Virus record (IMG/VR): IMGVR_UViG_3300017613_000725
Span: 1-49,373 of that record
Reading direction: 5' to 3' (one strand)
Origin: a virus
Length of the DNA: 49,373 nt
Position 1 is the first letter of the stretch. Each line of letters starts with the position of its first letter. The notes beneath the pieces were generated by a model. The model did no database searches and was not told where the DNA came from. It saw only the letters and a program-made list of their open reading frames with translations. Of the stretch, positions 6,587 through 44,860 are shown piece by piece. A program made the translations under genes and the position numbers.

Positions 6587-6750
6587 TGATCGGATGGAGA
6601 AAACTTATAGCGTTTATATTAACGCTGGCATCTTATACAGGGTTATTGTTCGCAAGAGACTTTGACCCGTTTGCACTTGGCACAGGACTTGTGCTATTAG
6701 CTGGCACATTTTTTGCTACGAATGTTGCGGAGCATTTAGCAAAAAAATAA
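6586..6750 (+). CDS. 54-aa two-TM protein (holin candidate)
   Basis: TAATG overlap with the upstream gene; two hydrophobic helices. Confidence 0.45.
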   Translation: MIGWRKLIAFILTLASYTGLLFARDFDPFALGTGLVLLAGTFFATNVAEHLAKK

Positions 6751-6752
6751 AT

Positions 6753-6780
6753 TTGACATTACCAATATTTTTATTATATT
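6753..6780 (+). promoter_or_regulatory. sigma70-type promoter candidate, TTGACA-N16-TATATT
   Basis: TTGACA at 6753-6758 and TATATT at 6775-6780, directly after the stop of the preceding operon. Confidence 0.4.
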
Positions 6781-6787
6781 GGTGTTA

Positions 6788-6932
6788 TGAATAACTCTGA
6801 CAAGTATCATTATTTAATATCGTGTCTGCCGAGTCGCTTCTGCGTCTTGGGTAGCAAGCCAGACACTTTAGTTGCCCTCATAATTATAAAGGTTTCAGTC
6901 AGAGTTTCCTTTAATTTGTGAGGGCTTTTTTT
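6788..6932 (+). ncRNA. candidate ~145-nt structured small RNA lying between the promoter candidate and an intrinsic terminator
   Basis: Stem-loop GTGTCTG(6822-28)/CAGACAC(6860-66), then a long terminator hairpin. No credible ORF: only a 9-codon ATG ORF, and the track ORF 6810..7001(-) lacks context. Confidence 0.3.
6874..6932 (+). terminator. intrinsic terminator
   Basis: GCCCTCA(6874-80)...TGAGGGC(6919-25) with inner AAAGG/CCTTT pairing, followed by T7 (6926-32). Confidence 0.6.
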
Positions 6933-6947
6933 ATGTGGCGAAACAAA

Positions 6948-7022
6948 AAATAACTGGCGGCGAATGATATGTCTGTAACCATAGGCGATCTCTCCCAACA
7001 CAAGATGGTCAGTTTGTTATTT
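6948..7022 (+). repeat. possible outlying copy of the junction unit (AAATAAC...GTTATTT)
   Basis: 7-bp inverted repeat AAATAAC(6948-54)/GTTATTT(7016-22); GGTCAGTTTGTTAT resembles the 3' box; lies 33 nt upstream of ATG 7055. Confidence 0.3.
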
Positions 7023-7054
7023 CTGACTCGCCACTAAATATTAAGAGGTAAGAT

Positions 7055-8319: not shown

Positions 8320-8555
8320 ACCAACCAGAATACATTTGCTTTGATTGTGCTAAAGGGCTAAGGTTACTTGATGTGGCGACTATGCACGTAGGACATTGCG
8401 ATGTGTGTGGTGAGGATGGCAAAGAGGTAGCACCCGGAAGAAAGTATGGCTATCCAGCTATTTGTAAGAAAGACGGACTTGTTAAACCAATTCGTAAGAT
8501 GGGCGGGCTGGTTTGCCCTAAATGCAGGGTTGTGTTAATTGCGTCAACCCATTGA
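8316..8555 (+). CDS. zinc-ribbon protein
   Basis: CFDC...HCDVCG...CPKC cysteine pairs. Confidence 0.55.
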   Translation: MNQPEYICFDCAKGLRLLDVATMHVGHCDVCGEDGKEVAPGRKYGYPAICKKDGLVKPIRKMGGLVCPKCRVVLIASTH

Positions 8556-8584
8556 CTGTTTTATTAACAACCAACGAGGAAGTT

Positions 8585-9421
8585 ATGAACATTAAAAATA
8601 TAGTCGTAATCTCTGACACACATTTTGGATGCCAACTTGGTGTTTGTAAAAAAATAAGATTAGATCACGGCGGGCATTATACCCCATCAAGGTTACAAAA
8701 GACTTTAGGCGTTTGGTGGGACATATTTTGGAGTGAATGGATACCACAAGCAACCAGGGGCAATGATTTTATTTTAGTCCACAATGGGGATATCATCGAT
8801 GGCATTCATCATAAAGCAACCACCCAAATATCCCACAATATAAATGACCAAAAGAACCTTGCTTTAGAAATGTTACAACCAGTTATAGATTTACCACACT
8901 GCAAAGGATACTATCAAATAAGAGGGACAGAAGCACACGCAGGGCAAGCACAGGAATATGAAGAAAATATAGCTCAACAATTAGGGGCTATAAAAAATGA
9001 GGACGGGCAGTATTCAAGATATGATTTGTGGTTAAAGTTTGGGGAGCATAAATTACTTGCTCACTTTGCACATCATATCGGGACAACTAATTCTGCAAGT
9101 TATGAGTCAACGGCAGTGCATAAAGAATATATTGAAGCTTGTGTTGAAGCAGGAAGGTGGGGGTTAAGCCCGCCAGATTGTGTTGTTCGTTCTCATAGGC
9201 ATAGATTTTACAAAACAGAGCTACCCTCTAAGAATGATAATGCAATTTCAGTGGTGACTCCAAGCTGGCAATTAAAAACACCCTTTGTTTGGAAGTTAGG
9301 GATGGGCAGAAGCTCAACTCCACAGATAGGCGGCATTGTAATTCGGGAGGGCACAGAAGTTAATATTTATTGCCGTCAAAAGGTTTGGAGCATTGAACGA
9401 TCTAAAGAGGTGCTGGTATAA
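8585..9421 (+). CDS. calcineurin-like metallophosphoesterase
   Basis: Start at ATG 8585 after GAGGA; motifs ISDTHFG, NGDIIDG, GTEAH, SHRH. Confidence 0.6.
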   Translation: MNIKNIVVISDTHFGCQLGVCKKIRLDHGGHYTPSRLQKTLGVWWDIFWSEWIPQATRGNDFILVHNGDIIDGIHHKATTQISHNINDQKNLALEMLQPVIDLPHCKGYYQIRGTEAHAGQAQEYEENIAQQLGAIKNEDGQYSRYDLWLKFGEHKLLAHFAHHIGTTNSASYESTAVHKEYIEACVEAGRWGLSPPDCVVRSHRHRFYKTELPSKNDNAISVVTPSWQLKTPFVWKLGMGRSSTPQIGGIVIREGTEVNIYCRQKVWSIERSKEVLV

Positions 9422-10173
9422 CTCGATTTGAAAAGAAAATAGAGAAAGCAATAAAAGCGTTAGAGTCATTTGAGCCGAAAGATGGTTATTATGTAGCGTT
9501 CTCAGGTGGGAAGGATAGTATAGTAATTTACGATTTGGTTAAAAGGGCGGGCGTGAAGTATGATGTTCACCATCACGTTACCACAATAGACCCGCCTGAG
9601 TTAATGAGGTTTATTAAAAAAGAATACTCAGAGGTAGATAGACATAAACCTGATTTGTCAATGTTTGAATTAGTTACTAAGAAAAAATCTTTGCCAACAA
9701 GGATAGGGCGTTTTTGCTGCGAATACTTAAAAGAGAGTGGCGGGAATAATAGGGTTATCATTTTAGGGATAAGATCAGAAGAAAGCAATAGTCGTAAAGA
9801 CAGAAAATTATTTGAATGGAATACAAAGCAAAATAAATTGATGTTTAATATTATTGTAGATTGGACAGAGAAAGATGTTTGGGAGTATATAGATTCAAAC
9901 AAATTAAAATACCCAGCAAGTTATGATACTGGCAAAAATAGACTTGGTTGTATCGGATGCCCCTTTAAAGGCGGCAAAAGAATGAAGAAAGAATTTGCAG
10001 AATATCCTAATATTAAGAAGGGATATATAAAAGCAATCCAGAAAGCACAAAATAATGGCGGATTTTCTTCTTTCAACGGGCATAATGCGGAACAAATATT
10101 TGATTGGTGGACTTCTGGTTTATCAGTAAAAGATTATCTACAAACATTAAAACAAGAGACGTTAAAATTATGA
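9406..10173 (+). CDS. PAPS-reductase-like PP-loop ATP pyrophosphatase; start codon unresolved
   Basis: SGGKDS P-loop at 9502-9519, then CCEYLK and GCIGCP motifs. Frame is open from 9406. The first ATG/GTG/TTG in frame is TTG 9535, downstream of the P-loop. Confidence 0.8.
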   Translation, partial: RGAGITRFEKKIEKAIKALESFEPKDGYYVAFSGGKDSIVIYDLVKRAGVKYDVHHHVTTIDPPELMRFIKKEYSEVDRHKPDLSMFELVTKKKSLPTRIGRFCCEYLKESGGNNRVIILGIRSEESNSRKDRKLFEWNTKQNKLMFNIIVDWTEKDVWEYIDSNKLKYPASYDTGKNRLGCIGCPFKGGKRMKKEFAEYPNIKKGYIKAIQKAQNNGGFSSFNGHNAEQIFDWWTSGLSVKDYLQTLKQETLKL

Positions 10174-10415
10174 AAGAGCCGAAAATAACCTATGCACAAT
10201 TTATGAAAGAGACAGACAAATACCGAAAGAATATTACTAATCGAGAAATTAAACTCACAAAAGAACAAAGAAAATTTATACTCAAATGCCGTGACCACGA
10301 AGAACCCGTTGCTTTTATAAAAATGGCAATACTGTGGGAACAATTCGGCTGGGGGAAAGTTTCCAGAACCGCTATTCAGGTACGTTGGAATAAAATTCAA
10401 AAAGGAGAACTATAA
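10170..10415 (+). CDS. small HTH-like hypothetical protein
   Basis: ATGA overlap with the upstream stop; GKVSRTAIQVRWNKI helix-like segment. Confidence 0.5.
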   Translation: MKEPKITYAQFMKETDKYRKNITNREIKLTKEQRKFILKCRDHEEPVAFIKMAILWEQFGWGKVSRTAIQVRWNKIQKGEL

Positions 10416-10425
10416 AGGAGAACAA

Positions 10426-10578
10426 ATGATAATCTGTGTATGCGGTAACGCAAAAAAAGATGAAGAAGAAATTTGTAAAGTATGCGGGCTGGTTTATACA
10501 TTACGCACACCAAAAGCACAACTTGAGATAGAAGAAGAACCACCTGAAAGTTTATATGTAGAGGTTATGGTGGAATGA
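10426..10578 (+). CDS. 50-aa zinc-ribbon protein
   Basis: AAGGAG SD; CVCG...CKVCG; ATGA overlap with the next gene. Confidence 0.5.
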   Translation: MIICVCGNAKKDEEEICKVCGLVYTLRTPKAQLEIEEEPPESLYVEVMVE

Positions 10579-10940
10579 AATACCTAAACCTTGCAGAAAG
10601 ATATTATAAGTTCCAAACCTATGTAGATATTTCCTGGGGGGAACTGTCTTGGTTCTCAGATTCCCTTGTCGAACTGATGGCAATTTTATATATACTCGAA
10701 AAGATAGGTATAGTAGTTGTTGGTGGTGTTATAATCTATGCCCTGATGGGTGCTTATATATTTTTCTTTTTCTTCGGGTTGATATTGAAGCGGACAGGTA
10801 TATATGATAAGTCGCAGTTTGTTGATGCTGAAATTGATCCGGTGTCTAAAGAAAACTTAGAAGCGTCAAGAAAGATTAACGAGTCATTATCCAAAATATT
10901 AGAAGCTGCGGAAATAATAATCAAGAAGGATAAATTATGA
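10575..10940 (+). CDS. membrane protein
   Basis: Two hydrophobic helices (VELMAILYILEKIGIVVVGGVIIYALMGAYIFFFFFGLIL). Confidence 0.6.
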   Translation: MKYLNLAERYYKFQTYVDISWGELSWFSDSLVELMAILYILEKIGIVVVGGVIIYALMGAYIFFFFFGLILKRTGIYDKSQFVDAEIDPVSKENLEASRKINESLSKILEAAEIIIKKDKL

Positions 10941-11211: not shown

Positions 11212-12270
11212 ATGTCAAACAATAAAACGTGCCTTGTGACAGAGTGTAATAGGGAAAAACACGTTAGAGGATTTTGTAGAACACATTATAACTGCTACCT
11301 CAAAGGCATCGACCCTTATGGCTATGAAATTGGGGAATTTTTATACGATGGGGCAGAAAGAACCGGAGAAAAATATAATTACTGGACAATTATAAATTAT
11401 ATAGATACTAAACACTATGGCAAAAAGAAAGTTGCCACAAGGAGATATTTATGTGAATGTAGGTGTGGCAATAAAAAAATTATTCCAATAAATAATTTAG
11501 TTTCTGGTAAATCAGCTTCTTGCGGGTGTAAGGAATATAAATTATACAAGGACTATTCTATACGAGTTGCTGAGAGTCCACTATATAATATGTGGGCGGG
11601 TATGATGGATAGATGTTATAATAACAAATCTGGTGCTTATAAAAATTATGGTGGCAGGGGGATAACAGTTTATAGTTTGTGGCACAACGCAGAAAATTTT
11701 ATAAAAGATATTACAAAGCTTTTAGGCAAGAAACCGTCTAAAAAACACTCCTTAGATAGAGTAAGAAATAATGAGGGCTACTTTCCTGATAATGTTAGGT
11801 GGGCTACACAGAAACAGCAAATGAATAATACAAGATACTCAGATAAATTAACTGCTGGCAGGGTTGCTGAAAAGACAGGATATTCAAGAGAACGGATAAG
11901 ACAGCTTACTTATTATACATCATCTTCGCCAAGCAACGAATTCCCCCTAAATAAATATATACAAGAAATTTGCCGACCAGAGGGCGACAAAAAAACACAC
12001 TTTATATATAAACCAGAAGTTATACAATATTTAATAGATAGGAGAAATGGCAAAATGGAAAAGACGTTATTATTTGTGCCCTTTGAGTACGGTAAATTTA
12101 TGAGTGACTATGTTATAACCCTTCCGCAGCTTGCTCAAATTCTTGATACCACGGAAACATCACTAAGGTCTCATATCAATAGAGACAAGATACGGAAAGA
12201 ACATTATCACCTGTTAAAAACCAGGGGCTACGTTGTTGAAAAATATCTTCAATCCACATTAAAAAATTAG
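11212..12270 (+). CDS. multi-domain DNA-binding protein: N-terminal Cys/His cluster, AP2/HNH-associated-type middle region, sigma70-region-4-like HTH and a second HTH
   Basis: CLVTECNREKHVRGFCRTHY; YNMWAGMMDRCYN...YGGRGITV...LDRVRNNEGYFPDNVRWAT; AEKTGYSRERIRQL; LPQLAQILDTTETSLRSHI. Preceded by a 137-bp AT-rich gap. Confidence 0.55.
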   Translation: MSNNKTCLVTECNREKHVRGFCRTHYNCYLKGIDPYGYEIGEFLYDGAERTGEKYNYWTIINYIDTKHYGKKKVATRRYLCECRCGNKKIIPINNLVSGKSASCGCKEYKLYKDYSIRVAESPLYNMWAGMMDRCYNNKSGAYKNYGGRGITVYSLWHNAENFIKDITKLLGKKPSKKHSLDRVRNNEGYFPDNVRWATQKQQMNNTRYSDKLTAGRVAEKTGYSRERIRQLTYYTSSSPSNEFPLNKYIQEICRPEGDKKTHFIYKPEVIQYLIDRRNGKMEKTLLFVPFEYGKFMSDYVITLPQLAQILDTTETSLRSHINRDKIRKEHYHLLKTRGYVVEKYLQSTLKN

Positions 12271-15350: not shown

Positions 15351-15420
15351 ACCCAATAAATTTATCAAATAATGAAACTACTAATAATATTATTCCCGGT
15401 TAAGAAAGGTGCGAAATACG

Positions 15421-16179
15421 ATGCCTAAAGACCCAGCATTCTTATTTTATTACCAAGATTTTTTAGTAGGCACGTCATTTTTAACAAACGAAGAAACTGG
15501 GGCATATATTAGAATATTAGCACACTTAGCCGATAAAGAGGTGTTGGACGAAGAACATATGATAAACATATGTATAACACAGAATATATGGGATTCTATT
15601 AAAAGTAAATTTGTAGTAGATAATGAAGGCAATTTTTATAATGAAAGATTAAGAGAAGAGTCTATTAAACGCAGGGAATACGCAGAAAGTAGAAGAAAAA
15701 ACAGGTTAGGGAAATCAAAATCATATGATAAACATATGGAAAATGGAAATGGAAATGAAGATAGAATTAAAGAATTAAAGAATGATAAGAATAAACACAG
15801 GGGGGAGTTTTTTGAAAATCTTTTTAATCTCTATCTGTTAGAATTTGTTAATAAACTTTCTTTAGAGACTTGGAAAGAGTGGGTAAGTTACCGGCGGGAG
15901 ATAAAAAAGAAGCTAACTAAATCTATGGCTGAAAAACAATTAAAGTTTTTAGTGCTACAAGGCGACCCCACTGGGTGTATAAACGAATCAATAAAGAATG
16001 GCTGGGCTGGCTTGTTCGAGTTAAAAAACAACCAATCAGTGAAACCGAAGATTGAGGGGACGGGCAGACGGGTGGCTTCGTATGAACAAACACAGAAGTT
16101 ATTTAGGGAAAATGAAGAAGCATTAAAAAAACAAGGCAAGTGGGACGGGGCAATAAAAACAGAAAATAAAGAAAGCTAA
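15421..16179 (+). CDS. DUF1376-like replication-associated protein
   Basis: PKDPAFLFYYQDFLVGTSFLTNEETGAYIRIL matches the DUF1376 N-terminal signature; start set at ATG 15421. Confidence 0.55.
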   Translation: MPKDPAFLFYYQDFLVGTSFLTNEETGAYIRILAHLADKEVLDEEHMINICITQNIWDSIKSKFVVDNEGNFYNERLREESIKRREYAESRRKNRLGKSKSYDKHMENGNGNEDRIKELKNDKNKHRGEFFENLFNLYLLEFVNKLSLETWKEWVSYRREIKKKLTKSMAEKQLKFLVLQGDPTGCINESIKNGWAGLFELKNNQSVKPKIEGTGRRVASYEQTQKLFRENEEALKKQGKWDGAIKTENKES

Positions 16180-16264
16180 AACATTTTAAGGAGATTAGCA
16201 GTGTGGCAAATAAACCGCACTGAAATTATGAACTTAAATAAATATTTTAATAACAAAAATGCCG

Positions 16265-16307
16265 AATCAAATAACTTGTCAGCTTTGAGTTGCTGGTTAG
16301 TTTGATT
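16265..16307 (+). repeat. junction hairpin with 3' box (copy E1)
   Basis: AATCAAATAAC...CAGC-N8-GCTG-GTTAGTTTGATT; 3' box TTGTCAGCTTTGAGTTGCTGGTTAG (16276-16300). Preceded by hairpin CAGTGTGG-caaataaa-CCGCACTG (16199-16222). Confidence 0.6.
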
Positions 16308-16325
16308 TTTGGCGGGAGAAATAAA

Positions 16326-16430
16326 ATGCTACACTTAACAGCTTTAGAATTAAATTCTTTAGGGTTCAAACAAAAGATTATAGATGGTTGGGTTAAAATA
16401 AAATCATTAATTGACGAAGCGTCCTGCTAA
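16326..16430 (+). CDS. 34-aa hypothetical protein
   Basis: GGGAGAA SD; the TAA stop forms part of the CTAACGG 5' box. Confidence 0.35.
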   Translation: MLHLTALELNSLGFKQKIIDGWVKIKSLIDEASC

Positions 16431-16551
16431 CGGTAGGGGCTTAAAGCGCAACGAGAAATCAGAGTAAATATTGAATTATGAATAACACTAAAAACATAAA
16501 AACCAAAACAAAGGAGACAACGAAAGTTGTCGACTTTGAAGCCTTTGTTAG
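16427..16551 (+). repeat. junction unit A (CTAAC...GTTAG, 125 nt)
   Basis: 5' CTAACGGTAGGGGCTTAA (16427-44); 3' box TTGTCGACTTTGAAGCCTTTGTTAG (16527-51) inside the 5' end of CDS 16478. Confidence 0.55.
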
Positions 16552-16774
16552 AATTTTTTGGGCGATAATAAACCCAGTAATTTGGAGATTAGGTAGAAAG
16601 CATAAGTGGGTGAGAGACAAATATAGAAGGATAAGAAAAGGTAAGTATTTATGGGGCATTATGGGGGCTATTGTTGATTATGAATCATCAGATAATGCCG
16701 AGTGTAAACCAGACCCAGAATTTGAAAAGTATATGAAAAGAATTTTTGAATATAAAAGCCCAAAACAATTATAA
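16478..16774 (+). CDS. hypothetical protein
   Basis: Track ORF; stop TAA embedded in TATAACGG. Confidence 0.6.
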   Translation: MNNTKNIKTKTKETTKVVDFEAFVRIFWAIINPVIWRLGRKHKWVRDKYRRIRKGKYLWGIMGAIVDYESSDNAECKPDPEFEKYMKRIFEYKSPKQL

Positions 16775-16859
16775 CGGTTGGCAAATAATGCGCAGCGAAG
16801 TAATTAAAATACCAAATCGGGAGACAGCTTTAGCTGTCGCTTTGATTTGATGGTTATAA
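16769..16859 (+). repeat. junction unit B (TTATAAC...GTTATAA, 91 nt)
   Basis: Perfect 7-bp terminal inverted repeat; inner hairpin CAAATC..GACAGC-ttta-GCTGTC..GATTTG; contains GGCAAATAA. Confidence 0.65.
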
Positions 16860-16881
16860 AATTATTAGATGGAATAATAAA

Positions 16882-17061
16882 ATGAATTGCCCAGAATGTG
16901 AAAAAGAAATGGAACAGATAGATACTACTTATTCTAATGTTAATACAGAGAGAGCGAAAAAAGAACAACACACTGGTAATATTTATAGATGCGATGACTG
17001 TGATTTACTTTGGTTAGAAAACTTATTAAATAATGGAATATTAGAAGCGTGGGCTTACTAA
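16882..17061 (+). CDS. 59-aa zinc-ribbon protein
   Basis: CPECEK...CDDCD; below the track cutoff. Confidence 0.55.
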   Translation: MNCPECEKEMEQIDTTYSNVNTERAKKEQHTGNIYRCDDCDLLWLENLLNNGILEAWAY

Positions 17062-17066
17062 TAATT

Positions 17067-17195
17067 TTATAACGGCTATCATCACTTGCCGCCGAACTTC
17101 AAAAATAAGGAAAACTAAAATGGAAAGCAAAACATCTTCCTCTAATTCAGAAGCGCAGACTGCTATAGGCGGTCAAGTGGATGAATTGGTTATAC
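17067..17195 (+). repeat. junction unit C (TTATAAC...GTTATAC, 129 nt)
   Basis: 5' TATAACGGC + CGGC-N11-GCCG hairpin; 3' box GGTCAAGTGGATGAATTGGTTATAC falls in codons 18-26 of CDS 17120. Confidence 0.55.
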
Positions 17196-17398
17196 TGCGG
17201 AAAGGAAAATGGAATGATAAATTATTAAATAAATTAATAGAAGATTGGAAAAGTTTTGGATGGAGATTAAGACTTTTAAACCAAGATCCTGGTGATGAAA
17301 ATTATCACCTTGCCAATATTGTCTTAAATCATTTAATACAGCACGAACCAGAAAAGTTTAAAGATATAAGAAAAAAACATTGTCTTACATTTAAATAA
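17120..17398 (+). CDS. hypothetical protein whose N-terminal leader is homologous to that of CDS 20330
   Basis: AAGGAA SD; MESKTSSSNSEAQTAIGGQVDELVILRKG compared with MSDKNENNNSELTEPTGEGQVELLVMLRP. Confidence 0.6.
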   Translation: MESKTSSSNSEAQTAIGGQVDELVILRKGKWNDKLLNKLIEDWKSFGWRLRLLNQDPGDENYHLANIVLNHLIQHEPEKFKDIRKKHCLTFK

Positions 17399-17404
17399 AG
17401 AGCA

Positions 17405-17462
17405 GTATAACGGCTAACATAAGCGGTGCGCTGTTTGCATCCGCTTGATGTATTTGTTATAC
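17405..17462 (+). repeat. junction unit D (GTATAAC...GTTATAC, 58 nt compound hairpin)
   Basis: Outer 7-bp stem; inner ACATAAGCGG / CCGCTT(g)ATGT stem around a 14-nt loop. Confidence 0.7.
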
Positions 17463-17483
17463 ACCGAAACGAAAGGATTGGAC

Positions 17484-17720
17484 ATGAAGCCATTAGACTT
17501 TATAAGAGTCAAAGAAACTGGTAGTATAGGTATGATAACAGAAGTTTCAACAACACAAGGGATTTATTCTGCATCCGTTGAATTTCTAAATTGTTTTACA
17601 GGAGAAAAAACTGCTTGGTGGAATGATGATGAATTTGAAATTATTGATAACTTACCAGATTTATTGGCAAGAGAATTAAAACATCCATTTGGAAATGATT
17701 CTTTACAACCATTCAAATAG
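17484..17720 (+). CDS. hypothetical protein
   Basis: Start moved to the ATG after AAAGGA; the track TTG start lies inside unit D. Confidence 0.55.
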   Translation: MKPLDFIRVKETGSIGMITEVSTTQGIYSASVEFLNCFTGEKTAWWNDDEFEIIDNLPDLLARELKHPFGNDSLQPFK

Positions 17721-17722
17721 GT

Positions 17723-17843
17723 GTATAACGGCAGGGGCTTAACCGGTTGTGAAAATAGAAAGGGATAAAATGATAATAACAATTAAAGACGAATTACCAG
17801 AAGATGAAATTAAACGTATTGAACAGGTTGAACTTAGTTATAT
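17723..17843 (+). repeat. junction unit E (GTATAAC...GTTATAT, 121 nt)
   Basis: 5' GTATAACGGCAGGGGCTTAAC, a 21-nt sequence identical to 19912-19932; 3' box CAGGTTGAACTTAGTTATAT inside the 5' end of the methyltransferase CDS. Confidence 0.55.
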
Positions 17844-18564
17844 GTACGGTGGAGAAAAAATGGGAGTTACTTATAATAATTTCAATATTAACAGTCCGGT
17901 TGAAGCCTTGGTTAGTTTGCCATACTATGAAGAAGATGGGATAACTATATACAACGCAGATTGCCGAATAATGATGCAAGCATTACGCCCAAGTTGGATT
18001 ATTACCGATCCGCCTTATGGAATAAACTATGATGGCTCTGGATATAAAAAGTGGAGTGGGCAGAAACAGACTTGGGATAAAATTAAGAACGATGATGGAT
18101 GTTATGATTTAGAATTTCTATTTAAGGCGGAAGGGAATAAGGTGGTTTTTGGGGCGGACAATTTTATAAACTTTATAACAAGTAAAGGAAGTTGGATAAT
18201 TTGGGATAAACGGGTTAATGATAAAAACGATAAAATGTTTGGCAATCCGATTGAAATGGCTTGGAATAGTTTGGAGGGATTACACAAGATTTATAGGATA
18301 CAGCACGGCGGAGTAGTTAACGCTGATTCGATTTATGGGAATAATGAAAAAAGAGTACACCCGACACAAAAACCAGTGAGGCTATTTTATAAAGTTATTG
18401 AAGATTTTACAGAGCAGAATGATTTTATACTTGACCCGTTTATGGGAAGTGGAACGACTTTAATAGCCGCACGTAAACTTGGGCGTAAGGCAACGGGAAT
18501 TGAAATTAATAAAAAATATTGTGATATAGCAATAAGACGATTAAGCCAAATGGAAATGTTTTGA
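17770..18564 (+). CDS. DNA methyltransferase, N6_N4_Mtase family (DPPY type, probably m6A)
   Basis: ITDPPYG (motif IV), HPTQKP, DPFMGSGTT (motif I) in beta-class order. Confidence 0.9.
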   Translation: MIITIKDELPEDEIKRIEQVELSYMYGGEKMGVTYNNFNINSPVEALVSLPYYEEDGITIYNADCRIMMQALRPSWIITDPPYGINYDGSGYKKWSGQKQTWDKIKNDDGCYDLEFLFKAEGNKVVFGADNFINFITSKGSWIIWDKRVNDKNDKMFGNPIEMAWNSLEGLHKIYRIQHGGVVNADSIYGNNEKRVHPTQKPVRLFYKVIEDFTEQNDFILDPFMGSGTTLIAARKLGRKATGIEINKKYCDIAIRRLSQMEMF

Positions 18565-18576
18565 GAATAGGACAAA

Positions 18577-18630
18577 CTAACAATAAGCTCACCTGCATCG
18601 CCTTGCGATGTCTGGTGGAGCGATAGTTAG
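18577..18630 (+). repeat. junction unit J (CTAAC...GTTAG, 54-nt compound hairpin)
   Basis: CTAAC/GTTAG, CTCACC/GGTG(G)AG and CATCGC-ctt-GCGATG nested stems. Confidence 0.65.
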
Positions 18631-18652
18631 AAACTATTTTAAGGAGTAAATA

Positions 18653-18877
18653 ATGACAGGGAAAGAAATGTTAAAAATGTGGCTCATTGGGAATGCGGGG
18701 ATAGAGCTTACCGAAGGGCTGATTGAAACCAAAGTCTATCAAGACCAGTGGAAATTCGGGCTTCATTATGAACCAGGTACTCTTTCTCGTTATTTCAGAG
18801 ATGTTAGAGATAATTTAGGGAAGTTCACTTGTAGGGAAGTTGAAAACCGAAAATATAAAACCTGGATTGTGGTGTGA
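18653..18877 (+). CDS. hypothetical protein
   Basis: AAGGAG SD. Confidence 0.6.
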   Translation: MTGKEMLKMWLIGNAGIELTEGLIETKVYQDQWKFGLHYEPGTLSRYFRDVRDNLGKFTCREVENRKYKTWIVV

Positions 18878-19266
18878 AAGAGAAAACTCACAAACAACTC
18901 ATTAAGGACTTAGATGCGATTTACTCAAAGTACATTCGCAAGCAAGCCGTTTACAATAGTGAGGGATTGGCTAAGTGTTACACCTGCGATCAAGTCAAGA
19001 GCTGGAAGTCAATGGATTGCGGGCATTATGTTTCCAGGAGGATTTTATCAACGAGATTTTTCGAGAAGAATACAAAAATTCAGTGTAAAAAATGTAATGT
19101 TTTCAGTGAAGGCAATAAACCACGCTTTGCTATTGAACTCCAGAAAGAATACGGCAAGGGGGTGCTTGAAGAACTTGATAGCTTATCCCGAATATTGGTT
19201 AAGTATGATAGAAACAAATTACAAAATATGATATTTTACTATAAAAAGAAGTTTGAGGCAATATGA
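18874..19266 (+). CDS. NinG-like recombination-associated protein
   Basis: CYTCDQ...CGHYVSRR...RFFEKNTKIQCKKCNVFSEGN resembles the lambda NinG family pattern; GTG start overlaps the upstream stop. Confidence 0.5.
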   Translation: MKEKTHKQLIKDLDAIYSKYIRKQAVYNSEGLAKCYTCDQVKSWKSMDCGHYVSRRILSTRFFEKNTKIQCKKCNVFSEGNKPRFAIELQKEYGKGVLEELDSLSRILVKYDRNKLQNMIFYYKKKFEAI

Positions 19267-19508
19267 AAACAGCAGATTTAGATTACTATAAAAATGTAGC
19301 GGAGACTCAACAATGTATTTCAGTATTGATACCGGAATTGCTTGATTTGATTGATGATGTAGAAGCTGAGCGCAAGGAATTGCTTGGTTTGATTGATAAG
19401 ATGATAGAAGAAGCTAAACCATATTTAAGAACAGGCAGAAAATTAGAAGCACAAATCCAGATAAATGTACTAACCGAACTTAAAAAGGAGATAAAAAATG
19501 TGGAATAA
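19263..19508 (+). CDS. hypothetical coiled-coil protein
   Basis: ATGA overlap with the upstream gene. Confidence 0.6.
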   Translation: MKTADLDYYKNVAETQQCISVLIPELLDLIDDVEAERKELLGLIDKMIEEAKPYLRTGRKLEAQIQINVLTELKKEIKNVE

Positions 19509-19590
19509 CGCTAAAATAAAAAAATTGACCATACTTATTGCTGTTTTTGTAGTCTGTGTAATTTTAACAGTTATATTTTGGATATTGTAA
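19498..19590 (+). CDS. 30-aa single-TM peptide
   Basis: AAGGAG SD; LTILIAVFVVCVILTVIFWIL. Confidence 0.35.
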   Translation: MWNNAKIKKLTILIAVFVVCVILTVIFWIL

Positions 19591-19620
19591 AAGATTATTA
19601 CAGAGTTAATAAAACCGACA

Positions 19621-19917
19621 ATGCACGAAATAATAAATATAAGATGTGAGTTTTGTGGTAAACCAAGACAGAGCGATGGCTACCACGGTTTGATGGTTTG
19701 TTGTAAAAATCCTAAATTGACCGAAGCTGCAAGCGAGGTCAATGTTGATTTGCTGGTTAGACCTAAAATTGCGGAATGGATTGATAATAAAATAAGAAAA
19801 AATTTAGAATTTGAAGTATATGCCAGATTAGATGAACGTGATTGGGGAAGATTTAGAGGGAAGCAGGAATTATTGGATGAACTTAAAGAGATGATTGAAA
19901 GCAATTTTACGGTATAA
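19621..19917 (+). CDS. hypothetical protein, paralogue of 19961..20278
   Basis: Shares LTEAASEVNVD at the same offset from the start; stop TAA lies inside TATAACGG. Confidence 0.6.
   Translation: MHEIINIRCEFCGKPRQSDGYHGLMVCCKNPKLTEAASEVNVDLLVRPKIAEWIDNKIRKNLEFEVYARLDERDWGRFRGKQELLDELKEMIESNFTV
19716..19775 (+). repeat. R1: intragenic repeat with hairpin TTGACC-N14-GGTCAA and 3' box
   Basis: 35 nt (19716-19750) identical to 20056-20090; similarity continues for about 60 nt. Confidence 0.9.
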
Positions 19918-19938
19918 CGGCAGGGGCTTAACTTGCCG
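19912..19938 (+). repeat. 5' box GTATAACGGCAGGGGCTTAAC with CGGCA/TGCCG hairpin
   Basis: 21-nt exact copy of 17723-17743. Confidence 0.85.
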
Positions 19939-19960
19939 AGCATAAACATAGGAGATTAGA

Positions 19961-20278
19961 ATGGATATAGAAAAAATAAGAGAAGAATTTTATAATGATT
20001 TTGGTGATTTGAAAGGTTTTAGTAAAAGCATTATGTGGAATTGGATAAAAACCAGATTGACCGAAGCTGCAAGCGAGGTCAATGTTGATTCGCAAGTTAG
20101 CCCTAAAATTGTGGACTTTGGACATTCTGATTTACCAAAAGAAGAACGTAATAGAATTATTCTACTTGCTATTGATAATACCATTAACCCCAAAAGAAAG
20201 ATAACCTTTGAACAAGCAGATTGGTTACGGTTTATATCTGTATTAAGAAAAGAAGGCTGGAAAATTGTGAAGTGTTAG
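19961..20278 (+). CDS. hypothetical protein, paralogue of 19621..19917
   Basis: GGAG SD; conserved LTEAASEVNVD segment. Confidence 0.6.
   Translation: MDIEKIREEFYNDFGDLKGFSKSIMWNWIKTRLTEAASEVNVDSQVSPKIVDFGHSDLPKEERNRIILLAIDNTINPKRKITFEQADWLRFISVLRKEGWKIVKC
20056..20115 (+). repeat. R2: second copy of the intragenic repeat
   Basis: Exactly 340 bp from R1; both copies begin 95 nt after their own ATG. Confidence 0.9.
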
Positions 20279-20284
20279 CAATTA

Positions 20285-20316
20285 AACCTAACGGTTAGGC
20301 AAATAACCTGCCTACC
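20285..20316 (+). repeat. junction element ACCTAAC-G-GTTAGGC plus hairpin with GGCAAATAA loop
   Basis: CCTAAC/GTTAGG palindrome; GGT(T)AGGCA-aataacc-TGCCTACC stem. Confidence 0.6.
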
Positions 20317-20329
20317 AAAATAAGAAGAT

Positions 20330-21142
20330 ATGTCTGATAAAAATGAAAATAATAATTCAGAACTGACCGAGCCAACAGGCGAAGGTCAGGTTGAGTTGCT
20401 TGTTATGTTGCGCCCGCTTCTTTACAAAATACACAATGAAGATTGTAGAGAAACTTTAGCAAAGCTACCGGCAGAGAGTATTGATTTAATAGTAACAAGC
20501 CCGCCTTATAATAAAAAGAGTGTGAACAGGAAATGTGGGAAAACTGATAGCTGGATGAAGGCGAATATAAATTATGGAACTTATAATGATGATTTACCAG
20601 AGAATGAATACCAAGAATGGCAAAAGAAAGTATTGAGGGAAATGGTGCGGGTGATAAAGCCCGAAGGAAGTATTTTTTATAACCATAAAGTTAGGATAAT
20701 AAACCACAGAGCAATAATACCAACAGAGTGGTTAAATGAATTTAATATACGGCAAGTTTTGATTTGGGATAGGGGTAATTCGCCACAGATAGCACCTATC
20801 CGATGGCTACCAACGACAGAATATATTTACTGGATTACAAAAACAAATACACAGCCTAAATTTTATAAACGTTCAAAGCATTTAGCGGAAGTATTGAGAA
20901 TATCTGCGAAACCCACAAATGACCATCCCGCACCGTTCCCTGAAGAATTGGTAGAAACGTTAATATTAAACACAACAGATGGAAGCGATGTAGTCTATGA
21001 CCCATTTAGTGGAAGTGGGACAGCCTGTAGAGTCGCAGACAGATTGGGGCGGGCTTGGTTTGGGAGTGAAATATCAGAGAGGTATTGCTCGGTAGCTTTG
21101 CGGAATATAAAAAGTGATTTATTTACTAAGGCGACAACATAA
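20330..21142 (+). CDS. DNA methyltransferase, N6_N4_Mtase family (SPPY type, possibly m4C); alternative start 20405
   Basis: VTSPPYN, HPAPFPEEL, DPFSGSGT. The 25-codon N-terminal extension consists of the repeat element. Confidence 0.9.
   Translation: MSDKNENNNSELTEPTGEGQVELLVMLRPLLYKIHNEDCRETLAKLPAESIDLIVTSPPYNKKSVNRKCGKTDSWMKANINYGTYNDDLPENEYQEWQKKVLREMVRVIKPEGSIFYNHKVRIINHRAIIPTEWLNEFNIRQVLIWDRGNSPQIAPIRWLPTTEYIYWITKTNTQPKFYKRSKHLAEVLRISAKPTNDHPAPFPEELVETLILNTTDGSDVVYDPFSGSGTACRVADRLGRAWFGSEISERYCSVALRNIKSDLFTKATT
20353..20407 (+). repeat. M2: repeat element inside the 5' end of the methyltransferase ORF
   Basis: TAATTCAGAA + CTGACC-N15-GGTCAG + TTGAGTTGCTTGTTATG. The stem differs from R1/R2 by a compensatory T:A to C:G change. 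Confidence 0.7.
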
Positions 21143-21213
21143 CGTACAAGCTAAACTGCAACGAAGCGAAAATCGAGGACACAGTAAGTTGTCAGATTTG
21201 AGCGGTTGGTTAG
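21137..21213 (+). repeat. junction unit H (ACATAAC...GTTAG)
   Basis: Stop TAA lies in the ATAACG box; hairpin AAATC..GACA-N8-TGTC..GATTT; 3' box GAGCGGTTGGTTAG. Confidence 0.55.
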
Positions 21214-21227
21214 AAAGGAGATTAACA

Positions 21228-21590
21228 ATGACTAAGAAAGAAGAGATAAATGGTAAGCTAAACAGTATTTTGTTTTCCGCCTATATCACAGGTAAAGAAA
21301 ATGGGGATAACAGAACCTTTCACAAATGGGAGGAAGAAAACCAAGTATGCAAACTATTTCTTAAAGAGGTTGGACAATACGGTAGAGATGAAAGGGTGGA
21401 TGAGTTGGATAAGATAGCAGAAGATTGTCCTAATTGTCCGAATCAAGGATGGTATGAAGTAACTGGCACATATATAAATCCCAATAATGGTGAACCAGAA
21501 CCGCAACAAGAACAAGAACAATGCCAATTTTGTTATGAACAGAAAAATTCACGTTTTAATATTGAAAACAGAATAAAAGAATTAGAATGA
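21228..21590 (+). CDS. Cys-rich hypothetical protein
   Basis: Start at the ATG after AAAGGAG; CPNCPN...CQFC. Confidence 0.6.
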   Translation: MTKKEEINGKLNSILFSAYITGKENGDNRTFHKWEEENQVCKLFLKEVGQYGRDERVDELDKIAEDCPNCPNQGWYEVTGTYINPNNGEPEPQQEQEQCQFCYEQKNSRFNIENRIKELE

Positions 21591-29316: not shown

Positions 29317-30852
29317 ATGCAATTAAGCCCAGAAGAAATAAAACGGGAATTAAAGAACGATTTACTATTGTTCGGGAGAACGATAAGCCCCGCAGCTTTC
29401 GGGCTACCTTCCCCCGAATTCCATTGTGAATTAGCCGACTTATTTATGGACAGGGCTGAAACAAGAATAGCGATAGAAGCTCCTCGTGGATATGCGAAAA
29501 GTACGCTTTGTATTTTTACTGTTCTACATCATCTGATGTTTGACGAGGGGAGTAAGTATGTTGTTATCCAGTCTAAAACACAAAGGGAAGCTAAAAAACG
29601 TCTTGGGGCGATAAAAAATATAATAGAATATTCGGGAGCATTTAGAGAGTTATTCGGATATATGGGTATGCAGGTGGCAAAGACTTGGAGAGAAGATTCC
29701 ATTGTGCTTCCTGATGGCAATACGATTGAAGCTAAGGGATACGGACAGCCCGTAAGAGGTGGTTTGAGTGAGGATTGGGCGAGAGTTACACTTTATTATC
29801 TGGATGACCCCGAAGATGAGGATAACACCAAGACTAAAGACGCTATGGAGGACAATCTCAAGAAATTCTTATCAGCAATCCCTGGTTTGGAAAAGAAAAC
29901 AGGCAGGTGCATAGTAGTAGGAACTCCGATAAATCAAAGTTGTCTTGTGGAGAAATTAAGAAAGATGGGCGGTTGGGTTTTCAAACACTATCAAGCCGTT
30001 AACGAAAAAACCAAAGAAGTCTTGTGGGAAGAAATGGAAACCTACGAGGAGTTAATGCGGGAAAAAGAAGACCACATTTCTATCGGCAAGGTTTCGATGT
30101 GGTATTCTGAAAAGCAATGTATTATCACCGGGGACGAAGATGCTTTATTTGAAGAGCAGGACATAAGATGGTGGGACGGATACCTTAAAACTGAAGGCGA
30201 AGATTCATTCCTTCACATCACTCACCAGAACAGACGTAAAAACGCAAATAATATTTGGGAAATGATATTGTTAGAGAACGAGCGGGTTATTCCCGTTAAT
30301 ACATTTATCGGCGTTGACCCTGCTTCATCTGAAAGAAGGGGTGCTGATTTTTCTACCACCGTTCCGATAGCTTATGATGAACACAAGAATATTTATGCGC
30401 TTCCTTATTATGAAAAGAGAGTGCGCCCTACCGTACACGCAAGGCAGATACAGGATAAATTTTTAGAAATAAGACCCAAAAAAACTTACATAGAATCAGT
30501 TGCTTACCAGGAATCATTAAGAGCTATGATGAGAGAGTGGATGGAAGATACTGATGAATATATACCGGGCATAGAGAAAAGATGGCAGCCGAGGCAGGAG
30601 AAGAACGAGAGGTTAAGCGAACTTCAGAGATTTACAAAGAGCAAGAGATTGCATCTCCAGCCGGGTATGAACCGGTTATTAGATGAGATGCTGCTGTTCC
30701 CAAGGGGTAATAAGAACCTGTTAGATGGTTTGTGGTATGCCACAAGGTCTTTAAGAGTGCCTGACCACAGTACAGCAGGCGAAGAAGATGACGATAAATA
30801 TATGGCAATACAATACTACCAAACTCAGGAATCACGCTGGATGGCAAAATGA
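29317..30852 (+). CDS. terL: terminase large subunit
   Basis: Walker A-like PRGYAKST; 511 aa; directly upstream of the portal. Start set at ATG 29317 because the track TTG start lies inside the palindrome/terminator. Confidence 0.85.
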   Translation: MQLSPEEIKRELKNDLLLFGRTISPAAFGLPSPEFHCELADLFMDRAETRIAIEAPRGYAKSTLCIFTVLHHLMFDEGSKYVVIQSKTQREAKKRLGAIKNIIEYSGAFRELFGYMGMQVAKTWREDSIVLPDGNTIEAKGYGQPVRGGLSEDWARVTLYYLDDPEDEDNTKTKDAMEDNLKKFLSAIPGLEKKTGRCIVVGTPINQSCLVEKLRKMGGWVFKHYQAVNEKTKEVLWEEMETYEELMREKEDHISIGKVSMWYSEKQCIITGDEDALFEEQDIRWWDGYLKTEGEDSFLHITHQNRRKNANNIWEMILLENERVIPVNTFIGVDPASSERRGADFSTTVPIAYDEHKNIYALPYYEKRVRPTVHARQIQDKFLEIRPKKTYIESVAYQESLRAMMREWMEDTDEYIPGIEKRWQPRQEKNERLSELQRFTKSKRLHLQPGMNRLLDEMLLFPRGNKNLLDGLWYATRSLRVPDHSTAGEEDDDKYMAIQYYQTQESRWMAK

Positions 30853-31037
30853 AAACAACATATTGTCCAGATTGTAAGAAAGACGTAATCACAAGATACA
30901 GATTTTTAACGAACTGGTGTTCTGTTTGTGACAACCCCCTGACAGAACCGATAAAACTAAATCTCCGTTTTATCAAGGAAGCGGGGAAAGACGAGAGACA
31001 CGCAAAAATGGCGAAAGAATTTGAAAGGTTCGAGTGA
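30849..31037 (+). CDS. zinc-ribbon protein
   Basis: CPDCKK...CSVCDN; ATGA overlap. Confidence 0.55.
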   Translation: MKTTYCPDCKKDVITRYRFLTNWCSVCDNPLTEPIKLNLRFIKEAGKDERHAKMAKEFERFE

Positions 31038-44855: not shown

Positions 44856-44860
44856 ATATT

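Follow-up and report, generated by a model that had tools for sequence, protein, structure and literature searches.

The window analysed here (49,373 nucleotides) is a complete circular phage genome of 49.3 kb, and its nin-like early region contains an array of structured repeat units separating small genes. Among the gene products of the phage are an exonuclease, NinB and NinG; no integrase or recombinase domain was found in the complete 49.3-kb genome. Its terminase is at most 30% identical to that of any phage in the collection; no close relative and no DNA match were found in the collections.

A preliminary description of this DNA had proposed that nearly every gene junction between 16.2 and 21.3 kb carries a member of one repeat family. 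The motifs are indeed present and enriched. TATAACGG occurs in five copies on the plus strand between 16770 and 19920 (1.3 expected for the whole window, both strands), TTGA-N6-KGTTAK in eight copies on the plus strand at 16.2-21.3 kb (3.4 expected window-wide), and AGGGGCTTAA three times. A structure-aware scan for TAAC, a spacer, an arm and, opposite it, a complementary arm that has a single G bulge 8 nt ahead of GTTA gave nine hits on the plus strand of the window and none on the minus strand, while 200 dinucleotide shuffles, both strands together, gave 0.8 on average and 4 at most. Seven hits had arms of at least 7 bp, against 0.3 in the shuffles. The same scan also detected the attC of aadA1 and two sites in phage TJE1, in each case on the bottom strand only. 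Three junctions of the NinG block (18877, 19266 and 19508/19498) are overlaps of genes free of any unit. At 6948-7022, the suggested outlier, there is no L box but only an inverted repeat of 7 bp (AAATAAC/GTTATTT), and the segment does not belong to the family.

On the plus strand each unit has the order R' (YTAAC), unpaired spacer, L', variable part of 20-180 nt, L'', spacer and R'' (GTTAK). The preliminary description saw one or two hairpins between a 5' box and a 3' box. Both boxes are real, but the pairing of the boxes themselves and of their flanks had been overlooked: the 5' box is R', the TTGA of the 3' box is L'', and GGCAAATAA, taken for a loop, forms L', the 5' arm paired with TT(G)ATTTG. 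In L'' one extrahelical G lies exactly 16 nt away from the 3' terminus of R''; beyond it come 6 bp of stem and then a T, likewise extrahelical, that falls within the GTCA of the 3' box. All 11 units have the G at position 16 and the T at position 23 or 24, the extrahelical positions named for attC (PMC5027507). The segment 17824-43, listed earlier as a 3' box, has the wrong spacing and is a decayed copy at best; the 17723 unit has its real 3' box at 17897-17917, which that list lacked. Coordinates are collected in Table 1.

Table 1. Putative attC sites and inferred cassettes of the array, in window positions
Feature	Position	Strand	Length and boxes	Extrahelical bases	Other details
attC U2	16425..16553	+	129 nt; R' TGCTAAC, L' GGCTTAAAG, R'' GTTAGAA	G16 (16538), A21, T24 (16530)	ATG 16478 in variable part
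attC U3	16769..16859	+	91 nt; R' TTATAAC, L' CAAATAA pairing with TT(G)ATTTG, R'' GTTATAA	G16 (16844), T23 (16837)	
attC U4	17067..17195	+	129 nt; R' TTATAAC, L' TCATCACTTGCC, L'' GG(T)CAAGTG(G)ATGA, R'' GTTATAC		Shine-Dalgarno sequence and ATG 17120 in variable part
attC U5	17405..17462	+	58 nt; R' GTATAAC, R'' GTTATAC	G16 (17447), T23 (17440)	most compact copy
attC U6	17723..17917	+	195 nt; R' GTATAAC, L' GGCTTAACCGG, L'' CCGG-TT(G)AAGCC, R'' GTTAGTT	T23 (17895)	long variable part with methylase 1 ATG 17770/17861 and decayed box 17824-43
attC U7	18575..18632	+	58 nt; R' AACTAAC, L' GCTCACC pairing with GGTG(G)AGC, R'' GTTAGAA		
attC U10	20286..20408	+	123 nt; R' ACCTAAC, L' CAAATAACCTGCC, L'' GG(T)CAGGTT(G)AGTTG, R'' GTTATGT		ATG 20330 in variable part; ATG 20405 directly after GTT, the start in methylase 2 homologs
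attC U11	21137..21215	+	79 nt; R' ACATAAC, R'' GTTAGAA	G16, A20, T24	
Partial U1	16193..16302	+	R' degenerate (GATTAGC)	G16, T24	array left end; 3' arm intact
Partial/atypical U8	19503..19762	+	260 nt; R' GAATAAC		R' at stop of gene 19263-19508; 3' arm intact
Chimeric U9	19912..20102	+			5' half identical to U6 5' half (GTATAACGGCAGGGGCTTAAC)
Nine inferred cassettes	16431..21142	+			attC and downstream gene(s); from cross-gene inverted repeats, gene calls, Pfam
Cassette 1	16431-16774	+			
Cassette 2	16775-17072	+			
Cassette 3	17073-17410	+			
Cassette 4	17411-17728	+			
Cassette with methylase 1	17729-18580	+			
Cassette with three genes including NinG	18581-19508	+			
Cassette 7	19509-19917	+			
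Cassette 8	19918-20291	+			
Cassette with methylase 2	20292-21142	+			

Eight of the sites are complete and all eleven share a single orientation. U1, U8 and U9 are present as proposed, but only as partial or chimeric copies. In U1, L' is CAAATAA with 6/7 bases paired, and the unit may be a hybrid end site. Inside U8 lie a membrane ORF of 30 aa and the N-terminal zinc ribbon of ORF 19621-19917. The 3' half of U9 copies that of U8 (a 75-nt repeat, 19701-19775 and 20041-20115, 85% identical), and the L arms of U9 are mutually mismatched.

The L boxes vary in sequence among the sites and keep their complementarity. Over the eight complete sites there are six distinct L arms (GGCTTAA and CAAATAA twice each, TCATCAC, ACATAA, GCTCACC, GCTAAA), each with a complementary partner, and the mean arm alignment score is 15.9 for cognate against 5.7 for non-cognate pairs. 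For example, the TGGA variant in L'' of U4 is compensated by a change in the partner arm. When arm was aligned to arm, the 3' arm gave g, 6-bp stem, t in U3, U4, U5, U6, U7 and U10, as did the aadA1 attC of R100 on its bottom strand with the same script (g-6-t). The exceptions are U2 (g-4-a-2-t) and U11 (g-3-a-3-t); three extrahelical bases, as in U11, are the pattern of attC_oxa2 (PMC5027507). Folded as single-stranded DNA, U4, U5, U7 and U10 have z-scores of -4.5 to -6.1, and U5 adopts the shape seen for the aadA1 attC bottom strand; MFE folding did not recover the canonical fold of U2 and U11. The plus strand folds better than the minus strand by 1.3 kcal/mol on average and is purine-rich in 7/8 sites. 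The plus strand, on which the genes are encoded, shows the properties of a recombinogenic bottom strand.

The genes between the units provide a second kind of evidence. For every gene, the GTTA box in front of it and the TAAC box behind it are complementary over 9-16 nt (ungapped 16/16, 10/10, 10/10, 9/9 and 9/9 nt; gapped 14/16 and 13/16), while non-cognate boxes match over 4-7 nt only, except for one 9-nt run from two boxes that both contain GTTAGTTTG. Such gene-specific complementarity is the footprint of a circular cassette. With the boundaries set by inference between TAA and C, the attC precedes the gene in each cassette, since the sense strand is here the bottom strand, and the TAA stop of the gene often lies at the cassette end. 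A tenth cassette begins at 21143, and its end was not found. Six ORFs begin within the variable part of a hairpin and read through the L''/R'' arm; to our knowledge no ORF starting inside an attC variable part has been described. The cassette methylases in the CALINs (attC clusters without an integron integrase) of TJE1 and P12002L are homologs of methylase 1, with 29-31% identity. At nine loci on other contigs with homologs of the 78-aa cassette protein, no flanking attC-like sites were found, which weighs against the cassette reading.

If these units are integron sites, then we can ask: How closely do they follow the classical ones? Likeness was tested against the aadA1 attC of plasmid R100 and the definitions in PMC5027507. 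The units share with the class 1 integron sites attC_aadA1/aadA7 and attC_oxa2 and with Vibrio cholerae VCRs the invariant AAC/GTT in R'/R'', the unpaired central spacer and variable terminal structure, the extrahelical G16 and T23/24 of the L box with a 6-bp stem between them, and a purine-rich, more stable bottom strand. As in integron cassettes, the first bases are complementary to the cassette's own inverse core, and the stop codon often lies in the TAAC box. Several features count against an attC identity: three units are incomplete or chimeric, beyond AAC/GTT the R boxes fit RYYYAAC/GTTRRRY only loosely, U6, U8 and U9 are longer than the usual attC range of 57-141 nt (some sites reach 190-260 nt), and the genes are inverted, with the bottom strand as coding strand. 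The window also differs from canonical cassettes in its ORFs beginning in the variable part, and from integrons in being a replicon without IntI, attI and Pc.

Phage CALINs were already described in 2023, and at least TJE1_attC2, the query that located the TJE1 locus, was assayed with IntI1 (Qi et al. 2023). Like the window, they are integrase-free attC clusters in phage genomes, their cassettes include N6_N4 DNA methyltransferases, and R' has a similar flavour (GTATAACG / TGCTAACGG); in PH101 and P12002L_attC1 the bottom strand is also on the coding strand. In contrast, they have 2-4 predicted sites, they belong to unrelated phages, and the window's cargo of typical nin-region genes is unlike theirs. 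The only larger reported phage array (16 sites, Vibrio anguillarum prophage) is a piece of the host's own chromosomal integron. The present array is unusual in its size, in having the attC bottom strand as coding strand and in ORFs starting inside the hairpin.

The attC sub-family of the window, CACTTGCC...GGtCAAGTGgA, also forms arrays in four other uncultivated viral contigs: L261 (IMGVR_UViG_3300024432_000061), L163 (IMGVR_UViG_3300028835_001459), L255 and L265. The five sites of L261 adjoin capsid, protease and portal genes of a genuine phage fragment. The arms in L261 and L163, GCT-CACTTG-CC / GG-t-CAAGTG-g-AGC, closely match U4, with the same bulge pattern (g, 6 bp, t) and the same kind of cassette-specific R complementarity (GTTATAAAT / ATTTATAAC). 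Unlike in the window, their genes lie opposite the bottom strand, in canonical orientation, on a different phage backbone and with no cassette protein in common.

Taken together, the bottom-strand architecture with G16 and T23/24 and the cross-gene R'/R'' complementarity strongly support one of the earlier proposals, that of attC-like sites folded from single-stranded DNA. The junction units are very probably attC recombination sites of the integron type; with eight complete and three partial copies they would form a co-oriented CALIN. As the complete genome lacks an integrase, the array would rely on a host IntI.

The same lack of an integrase could mean that the attC sites are genuine but a dead relic, put together or acquired a single time and no longer mobilised, with hairpins that persist only because they are recent or now serve expression. 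In agreement with this, 3/11 units are partial or chimeric, the 75-nt duplication shows that they have undergone homologous recombination, and no variant arrays were found in the collections. However, although their sequences differ, none of the 8/8 complete sites has lost either extrahelical base, the 6-bp spacing or the compensation between its L arms, so the structure appears to be under continued selection, and five cassettes still show perfect complementarity, over 9-16 nt, between their own R boxes. We consider a relic unlikely.

An RNA-level role, in which the units would be processed in the manner of RNase III sites or would act as translational operators between early genes, is suggested by the folded strand being the mRNA-sense strand and by several start codons within the variable part. 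This leaves unexplained both the match of boxes before and after the same gene and the bulges at the exact attC positions, nor does it account for this architecture in L261, L163 and TJE1, where it lies on the non-coding strand. An Rfam search of the window reported no family. As the main function it is very improbable, and the RNase III processing proposed earlier is at most a possible side effect of the sense-strand fold.

Shuffling by homologous recombination at repeated boundary sequences, without a site-specific recombinase, would resemble PeSLs of T4-type phages and lambdoid boundaries. These too are repeated structured elements between small early genes in a hyperplastic region, with proposed modular shuffling and circle generation. 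PeSLs, as Arbiol et al. are said to have described in 2010, are direct repeats that combine an early promoter of the sigma-70 type with a terminator-like hairpin and act via homologous recombination. In favour of this, the phage has genes for an exonuclease, NinB and NinG, and two 5' halves have an identical 21-mer in common. Yet most units share only blocks of 4-9 nt, too short for efficient homologous recombination, and their conservation is in structure, with attC bulges, rather than in sequence. Inverted complementarity brackets each gene, which is unexpected from direct-repeat exchange. Neither sigma-70-like promoters (24 against 25.7 expected) nor terminator-like sites (3 against 3.8) are enriched, and the earlier proposal of terminator-type regulatory elements finds no support here. 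Boundary sequences of this kind account at most for the 75-nt duplication and the chimeric U9, not for the other units, and we regard them as a most doubtful explanation of the array.

It is hardly credible that the 3' box encodes a conserved N-terminal peptide (phi-D/E-x-L/F-V), such as a targeting or cleavage signal of early proteins: 7/10 box copies are in frame with a long downstream ORF and a similar peptide, NMEMVV, is retained in a homolog of the 92-aa protein, but three copies are out of frame or non-coding, the position of GTCA shifts by one base with respect to TTGA, and GTT is invariant while the next codon is S, R, I or M, so that conservation is at the DNA level. The peptide is a by-product of ORFs reading through the L''/R'' arm, and at GTTAG-type boxes these must use one frame because only that frame is stop-free.

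For the phage CALIN, then, we infer recombination activity by analogy with the integron mechanism. A host-supplied IntI tyrosine recombinase would bind the folded single strand and cut between A and C of TAAC; the cassette would leave as a circle and re-insert at another attC site. In this way small accessory genes, anti-restriction methylases included, might be gained, lost and reordered by the phage. If this reading is true, about ten small genes become swappable cassettes, and these include two DNA methylases.

The junction units at 16.2-21.3 kb, U1 to U11 from 5' to 3', are very probably the attC sites of a phage-borne CALIN, i.e. a cluster of attC sites without an integron integrase. According to Nivina et al. 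2016 (PMC5027507), the bottom strand of attC reads R' (5'-RYYYAAC-3'), an unpaired central spacer, L', a variable terminal structure, L'' with an extrahelical G at position 16 and a conserved extrahelical T at 23 or 24, a second spacer and R'' (5'-GTTRRRY-3'). A 6-bp stem lies between the G and the T, occasionally with a third extrahelical base at position 20, and the cut falls between A and C of the AAC in R' (PMC5027507).

In the window, the stretch that begins a few bases behind TAAC is reverse-complementary to the one that precedes GTTA, save for one extra G in the 3' arm, 8 nt before GTTA, which is the G of the TTGA/TGGA element singled out in the preliminary description. The paired arms vary among the units and keep their complementarity: GGCTTAA/TT(G)AAGCC, CAAATAA/TT(G)ATTTG, TCATCAC/GTG(G)ATGA, ACATAA/TT(G)ATGT, GCTCACC/GGTG(G)AGC and GCTAAA/TTT(G)AGC. 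With positions numbered from the 3' end of the 7-nt GTTAKNN box, a G occupies position 16 in all eleven units and is unpaired between compensated arms in all eight complete sites. Alignment of each 5' arm with the reverse complement of its own 3' arm gave the second bulge, an unpaired T exactly six base pairs beyond the G; a T occupies position 23 or 24 in 11/11 units. The pattern g, 6 bp, t is found in U3, U4, U5, U6, U7 and U10, with one mismatch each in U3 and U7, and a third unpaired base, A, stands between G and T in U2 (g-4-a-2-t) and U11 (g-3-a-3-t). Cognate arms have a mean alignment score of 15.9 versus 5.7 for non-cognate arms. A scan of both strands of the window for this two-arm geometry yielded nine matches, all of them + strand, against a mean of 0.8 in dinucleotide shuffles.

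TAAC and GTTA are present in 8/8 complete sites, and the R stems measure 4-7 bp within the junction and 9-16 bp when the cassette's own partner box is used. The degenerate R-box positions fit RYYYAAC/GTTRRRY loosely (e.g. GTATAAC, GTTATAC); PMC9892861 includes GTATAAC/GTTATAC boxes among phage attC sites recombined by IntI1. The spacers are 4-7 nt in the 5' arm and 3-5 nt in the 3' arm, the attC definition having about 5-6 unpaired nt per arm. Seven complete sites (58, 58, 79, 91, 123, 129 and 129 nt) are inside the 57-141 bp range of attC; U6, U8 and U9 (195, 260 and 191 nt) exceed it. The + strand has a folding energy lower by 1.3 kcal/mol than the - strand (mean of the eight complete sites) and a purine fraction of 0.53-0.64 in seven of these eight; this stabler, purine-rich strand thus has bottom-strand properties. 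With R box, L box and extrahelical G and T in place, the suggestion in the preliminary description of attC-like folded single-stranded sites is strongly supported.

Positions of the junction units, cassette box pairs and related features
Feature	Record	Position	Remark
U2	window	16425..16553	complete
U3	window	16769..16859	complete
U4	window	17067..17195	complete
U5	window	17405..17462	complete
U6	window	17723..17917	complete
U7	window	18575..18632	complete
U8	window	19503..19762	partial or chimeric
U9	window	19912..20102	partial or chimeric
U10	window	20286..20408	complete
U11	window	21137..21215	complete
Left array flank	window	15409-16179	O-like replication protein
Right array flank	window	21228-21590	120-aa protein, no function assigned
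75-nt direct repeat	window	19701-19775 and 20041-20115	85% identity
Cassette box pair GTTATAAAATTATTAG/CTAATAATTTTATAAC	window		16/16 nt complementary, ungapped
Cassette box pair GTTATACTGC/GCAGTATAAC	window		10/10 nt complementary
Cassette box pair GTTATACACC/GGTGTATAAC	window		10/10 nt complementary
Methylase 1 cassette box pair GTTAGTTTG/CAAACTAAC	window		9/9 nt complementary
Methylase 2 cassette box pair GTTATGTTG/CAACATAAC	window		9/9 nt complementary
L261 array	IMGVR_UViG_3300024432_000061	8536-10681	five sites; adjoins capsid, protease and portal genes; reaches contig end
L163 array	IMGVR_UViG_3300028835_001459	1767-2396	three sites; cassette-specific R complementarity as in window
L255 array	L255	2183-3835	attC sites of CACTTGCC...GGTCAAGTGGA type
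L265 array	L265	10607-13539	attC sites of CACTTGCC...GGTCAAGTGGA type
PH101_attC1	L125 (Pseudoalteromonas phage H101/PH101)	3001-3058
P12002L_attC1	L047 (Polaribacter phage P12002L)	30005-30059

The family of repeat units is also real by motif counts: TATAACGG occurs five times on the + strand at 16770-19920 (1.3 expected in the whole window on both strands), and TTGA-N6-KGTTAK eight times on the + strand at 16.2-21.3 kb (3.4 expected window-wide). A repeat search of the window recovered the same box families. Three details of the earlier list needed correction: the 3' box of the unit at 17723 is 17897-17917 and not 17824-43, the units are not uniform, U1, U8 and U9 being partial or chimeric, and the outlier proposed at 6948-7022, a 7-bp AAATAAC/GTTATTT inverted repeat, does not belong to the family. 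The candidates 6951/7016 and 12504/12582 are not supported. The long intergenic stretch at 6750-7050 looks like an operon boundary rather than an attC site; it carries a near-consensus promoter at about 6753-6780 (TTGACA, 16 nt, TATATT), a long hairpin at about 6824-6867 (GTGTCTG...CAGACAC) and a terminator-like hairpin with a T-run at about 6876-6933 (CCCTCA...TGAGGGCTTTTTTT).

The geometry scan was derived from the window and served as a surrogate for a curated attC covariance model (IntegronFinder attc_4.cm, HattCI); Rfam at the gathering threshold gave no family in the window. As a control, the aadA1 attC of plasmid R100, which immediately follows aadA1 on that gene's coding strand, was matched on the bottom strand only, opposite the coding strand. 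Its arm alignment is g, 6 bp, t, and its single-stranded fold has the same shape as that of U5. In phage TJE1 the scan found two attC sites, both on the bottom strand only; the query that located this locus, TJE1_attC2, is described by Qi et al. 2023 (PMC9892861) as a site assayed with IntI1. The predicted attC sites of phage P12002L were missed by the strict scan; they have no bulged G, and P12002L_attC1 was negative in the recombination assay of PMC9892861.

The start of an integron cassette (TTRRRY...) pairs with the inverse core of its own attC, as the two are one hairpin split by recombination, so that halves of the R box are found at both ends of an integrated cassette. Here, the complementarity between the GTTA... 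box before a gene and the ...TAAC box after that gene extends well past the four conserved bases. Besides the five pairs in the table, one more cassette has 13/16 matches and another, by gapped reading, 14/16, and two have R complementarity of 5 nt only. Non-cognate pairs give 4-7 nt, save one 9-nt run in which GTTAGTTTG is common to two boxes. Complementarity of this kind across a gene is the classical hallmark of an integron cassette.

The extrahelical bases lie on the + strand arm beside GTTA, and therefore the + strand is the bottom strand. All genes of the array, methylases and NinG included, are encoded on this strand as well. The canonical order is a promoterless top-strand ORF followed by attC, as in the aadA1 and TJE1 controls; the cassettes of the window, in contrast, are inverted, with attC upstream of each gene. 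Six predicted ORFs start within the variable part of the hairpin (ATG at 16478, 17120, 17770/17861, 19621, 19961 and 20330), and the homologs of methylase 2 (cassette 20292-21142) start at the ATG immediately following GTT. By analogy with known sites, the crossover would take place at TAA|C, and a cassette would consist of attC followed by its own gene. It fits this arrangement, with the 3' arm and downstream gene as a single unit, that the 75-nt repeat of U8 and U9 runs unbroken through GTTA into the downstream gene.

What could move such cassettes? A 77-nt direct terminal overlap (1-77 and 49297-49373) indicates that the window is a complete circular assembly of 49,296 bp. Its genes include those for a terminase, a P22-like portal, an SU10-like capsid protein, an exonuclease, NinB, an O-like replication protein, NinG and two N6_N4 methylases. 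Among the structural genes there are also a PAPS-reductase-like protein (9535-10173), a 352-aa HNH endonuclease (11212-12270) and a two-domain glycosyltransferase (37425-38870). A giant ORF of >1,500 aa without annotation extends from 44852 to 49373 and on to about 346 across the circle junction, and might encode an internal or ejection-type protein. The ORFs tested of the 49.3-kb genome gave no tyrosine or serine recombinase domain, Phage_integrase included. A complete integron, with intI, attI and Pc beside the array, is not present, no tyrosine recombinase having been found. A CALIN has at least two co-oriented attC sites <4 kb apart and no intI; here there are eleven sites within 5 kb on one strand. 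Since no recombinase was found among the ORFs tested of this complete genome, the array is a CALIN and any activity would need an integrase in trans.

In known integrons IntI is under SOS control. A host IntI would fold out the + strand of attC and cleave at AA|C, so excising or inserting cassettes; the steps of recombination beyond the hairpin structure we infer only from the architecture. According to Loot et al. (bioRxiv 10.1101/2022.09.11.507474), IntI can insert cassettes into genomic positions that are not att sites, a plausible route for seeding an array in a phage genome. The 75-nt repeat occupies one and the same codon offset (codon 33) in two neighbouring ORFs that have no other similarity, encodes LTEAASEVNVD in both, and records a recent exchange in which two attC 3' arms took part. 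That the array is a relic, in which mobilisation has ceased, we consider unlikely.

Because the hairpins lie in the mRNA, they may well influence translation or processing in addition to serving recombination. A primarily RNA-level role is nevertheless very improbable, as the complementarity across genes is not predicted by an RNA-processing or promoter model. The 3' box was also tried as a promoter (sigma-70, Bacteroidetes -33/-7, sigma-54, MotA box, SPO1 late), and this reading was rejected on spacing, with several boxes inside ORFs and no enrichment.

The early regions of phages are strongly mosaic, which is usually put down to homologous or illegitimate recombination. For the units themselves, a role as boundary sequences for homologous recombination has very little probability. 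The terminator and PeSL-type options of the preliminary description find no support at 15.3-22.3 kb, where promoter-like sites number 24 versus 25.7 expected and terminator-like sites 3 versus 3.8 expected; each PeSL repeat would have a sigma-70-type early promoter plus a terminator-like stem-loop. Chi-like sites, iterons, parS, IS200/IS605 ends, MITE terminal repeats with target duplications, Xer/dif-like sites and ribosomal bypassing were dropped once the two-arm bulged pairing was recognised.

The least probable reading, with hardly any chance, is that the 3' box is a peptide motif: 7/10 copies share the frame of a long ORF that follows and code for phi-D/E-x-L/F-V, and three are out of frame or non-coding. 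Within the box GTT is invariant and the following codon is S, R, I or M, GTCA shifts one base relative to TTGA, and GTTAG-type boxes have one frame only without a stop codon. These facts of frame, codon and shift indicate conservation at the nucleic-acid level and rule against the motif, the peptide being a by-product of ORFs reading through the box.

Returning to the attC reading, no close relative of the window was found by megablast or blastn against phages, terminase tblastn gave a best identity of <=30%, and NinG, methylase 2 and the O-like protein led to no close relatives, the motif being absent from the retrieved loci. Nine loci of other contigs with homologs of the 78-aa cassette protein had no attC-like flanks. 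The pattern TAACGGYAGGGGCTTAA returned only coding coincidences, random matches and one unrelated metagenome repeat from viral, genome and metagenome collections. This repeat, of ~130 nt or more (...TATGCCTAAGTAAACGGGAGGCAGCTAACGGTAGGGGCTTAACTATATCGTGC...), stands at many contig ends (L067-L124, about 30 Ga0302320 contigs) of one metagenome. The 92-aa cassette protein has a single homolog, of 141 aa and with another N-terminus, on contig L127 (JGI 3300033064, 560-1025), where the peptide NMEMVV takes the place of the window's attC 3' arm (QVDELVI). A GTATAAC at this locus coincides in part with the stop codon of the gene before it, but no attC geometry was found; this could be a site that has decayed or the coding sequence in its ancestral form.

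A structure-guided pattern scan of IMG/VR recovered arrays of the window's attC sub-family, with 2-5 canonical sites. L261 is a genuine phage fragment. Gene orientation in L261 and L163 is canonical, unlike that of the window. Qi et al. 2023 (PMC9892861) report 17 CALINs in phage genomes with 2-4 attC sites each, five phage attC sites recombined by IntI1 and five cassette methylases; phage CALINs in metagenomes may outnumber these 17. Methylase 1 of the window (cassette 17729-18580) is homologous to the cassette methylases of TJE1 and P12002L. When the published bottom strands were mapped, PH101_attC1 and P12002L_attC1 proved to lie on the coding strand of their flanking genes, as in the window, a placement on which the accessible part of PMC9892861 apparently has no remark. 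On the minus strand of the P12002L genome, intergenic stretches at 30849-30964, 38016-38117 and 38817-38949, between early genes and methylases, hold more AAC...GTTA hairpin-like elements (e.g. CTAACGGACGAGTATATACGT...ACGTATATACATTGTTAC) with perfect stems and no bulged G, which may be unreported attC-like sites without extrahelical bases.

Phage-borne CALINs as such are already known; what stands out here is the size and quality of the array, its early-gene cargo, the uniformly inverted genes and the start codons within the hairpin. That PH101 and one P12002L site are also inverted hints at a recurrent design and not an accident. It is conceivable, though doubtful, that some phages keep a phage-type pool of cassettes, with attC upstream, the bottom strand as sense strand, a start codon possibly inside the hairpin and the TAA stop closing the cassette. 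In a bacterial integron they would be silent or antisense, and in the early operon of a phage read-through would express them. In that case the nin-like early accessory region would be an integrase-less integron platform, borrowing the SOS-induced IntI of the host and swapping anti-defence and other early genes among co-infecting phages.

The array is a large and well-resolved addition to the few phage CALINs described in the 2023 paper (PMC9892861), and it exposes an orientation rule, bottom strand equal to sense strand, about which the accessible part of that paper is apparently silent. Cassette cargo can thus be ordinary phage genes: methylases, NinG and small early proteins. An entire nin-like region made of integron cassettes, whose attC hairpins are textbook examples and which bear the footprints of circles as intermediates, offers an alternative route to the mosaicism of early regions. 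Should these sites be substrates of a host IntI, gene exchange in phages and in bacterial integrons would use one common currency, which would bear on the spread of anti-defence and defence genes.
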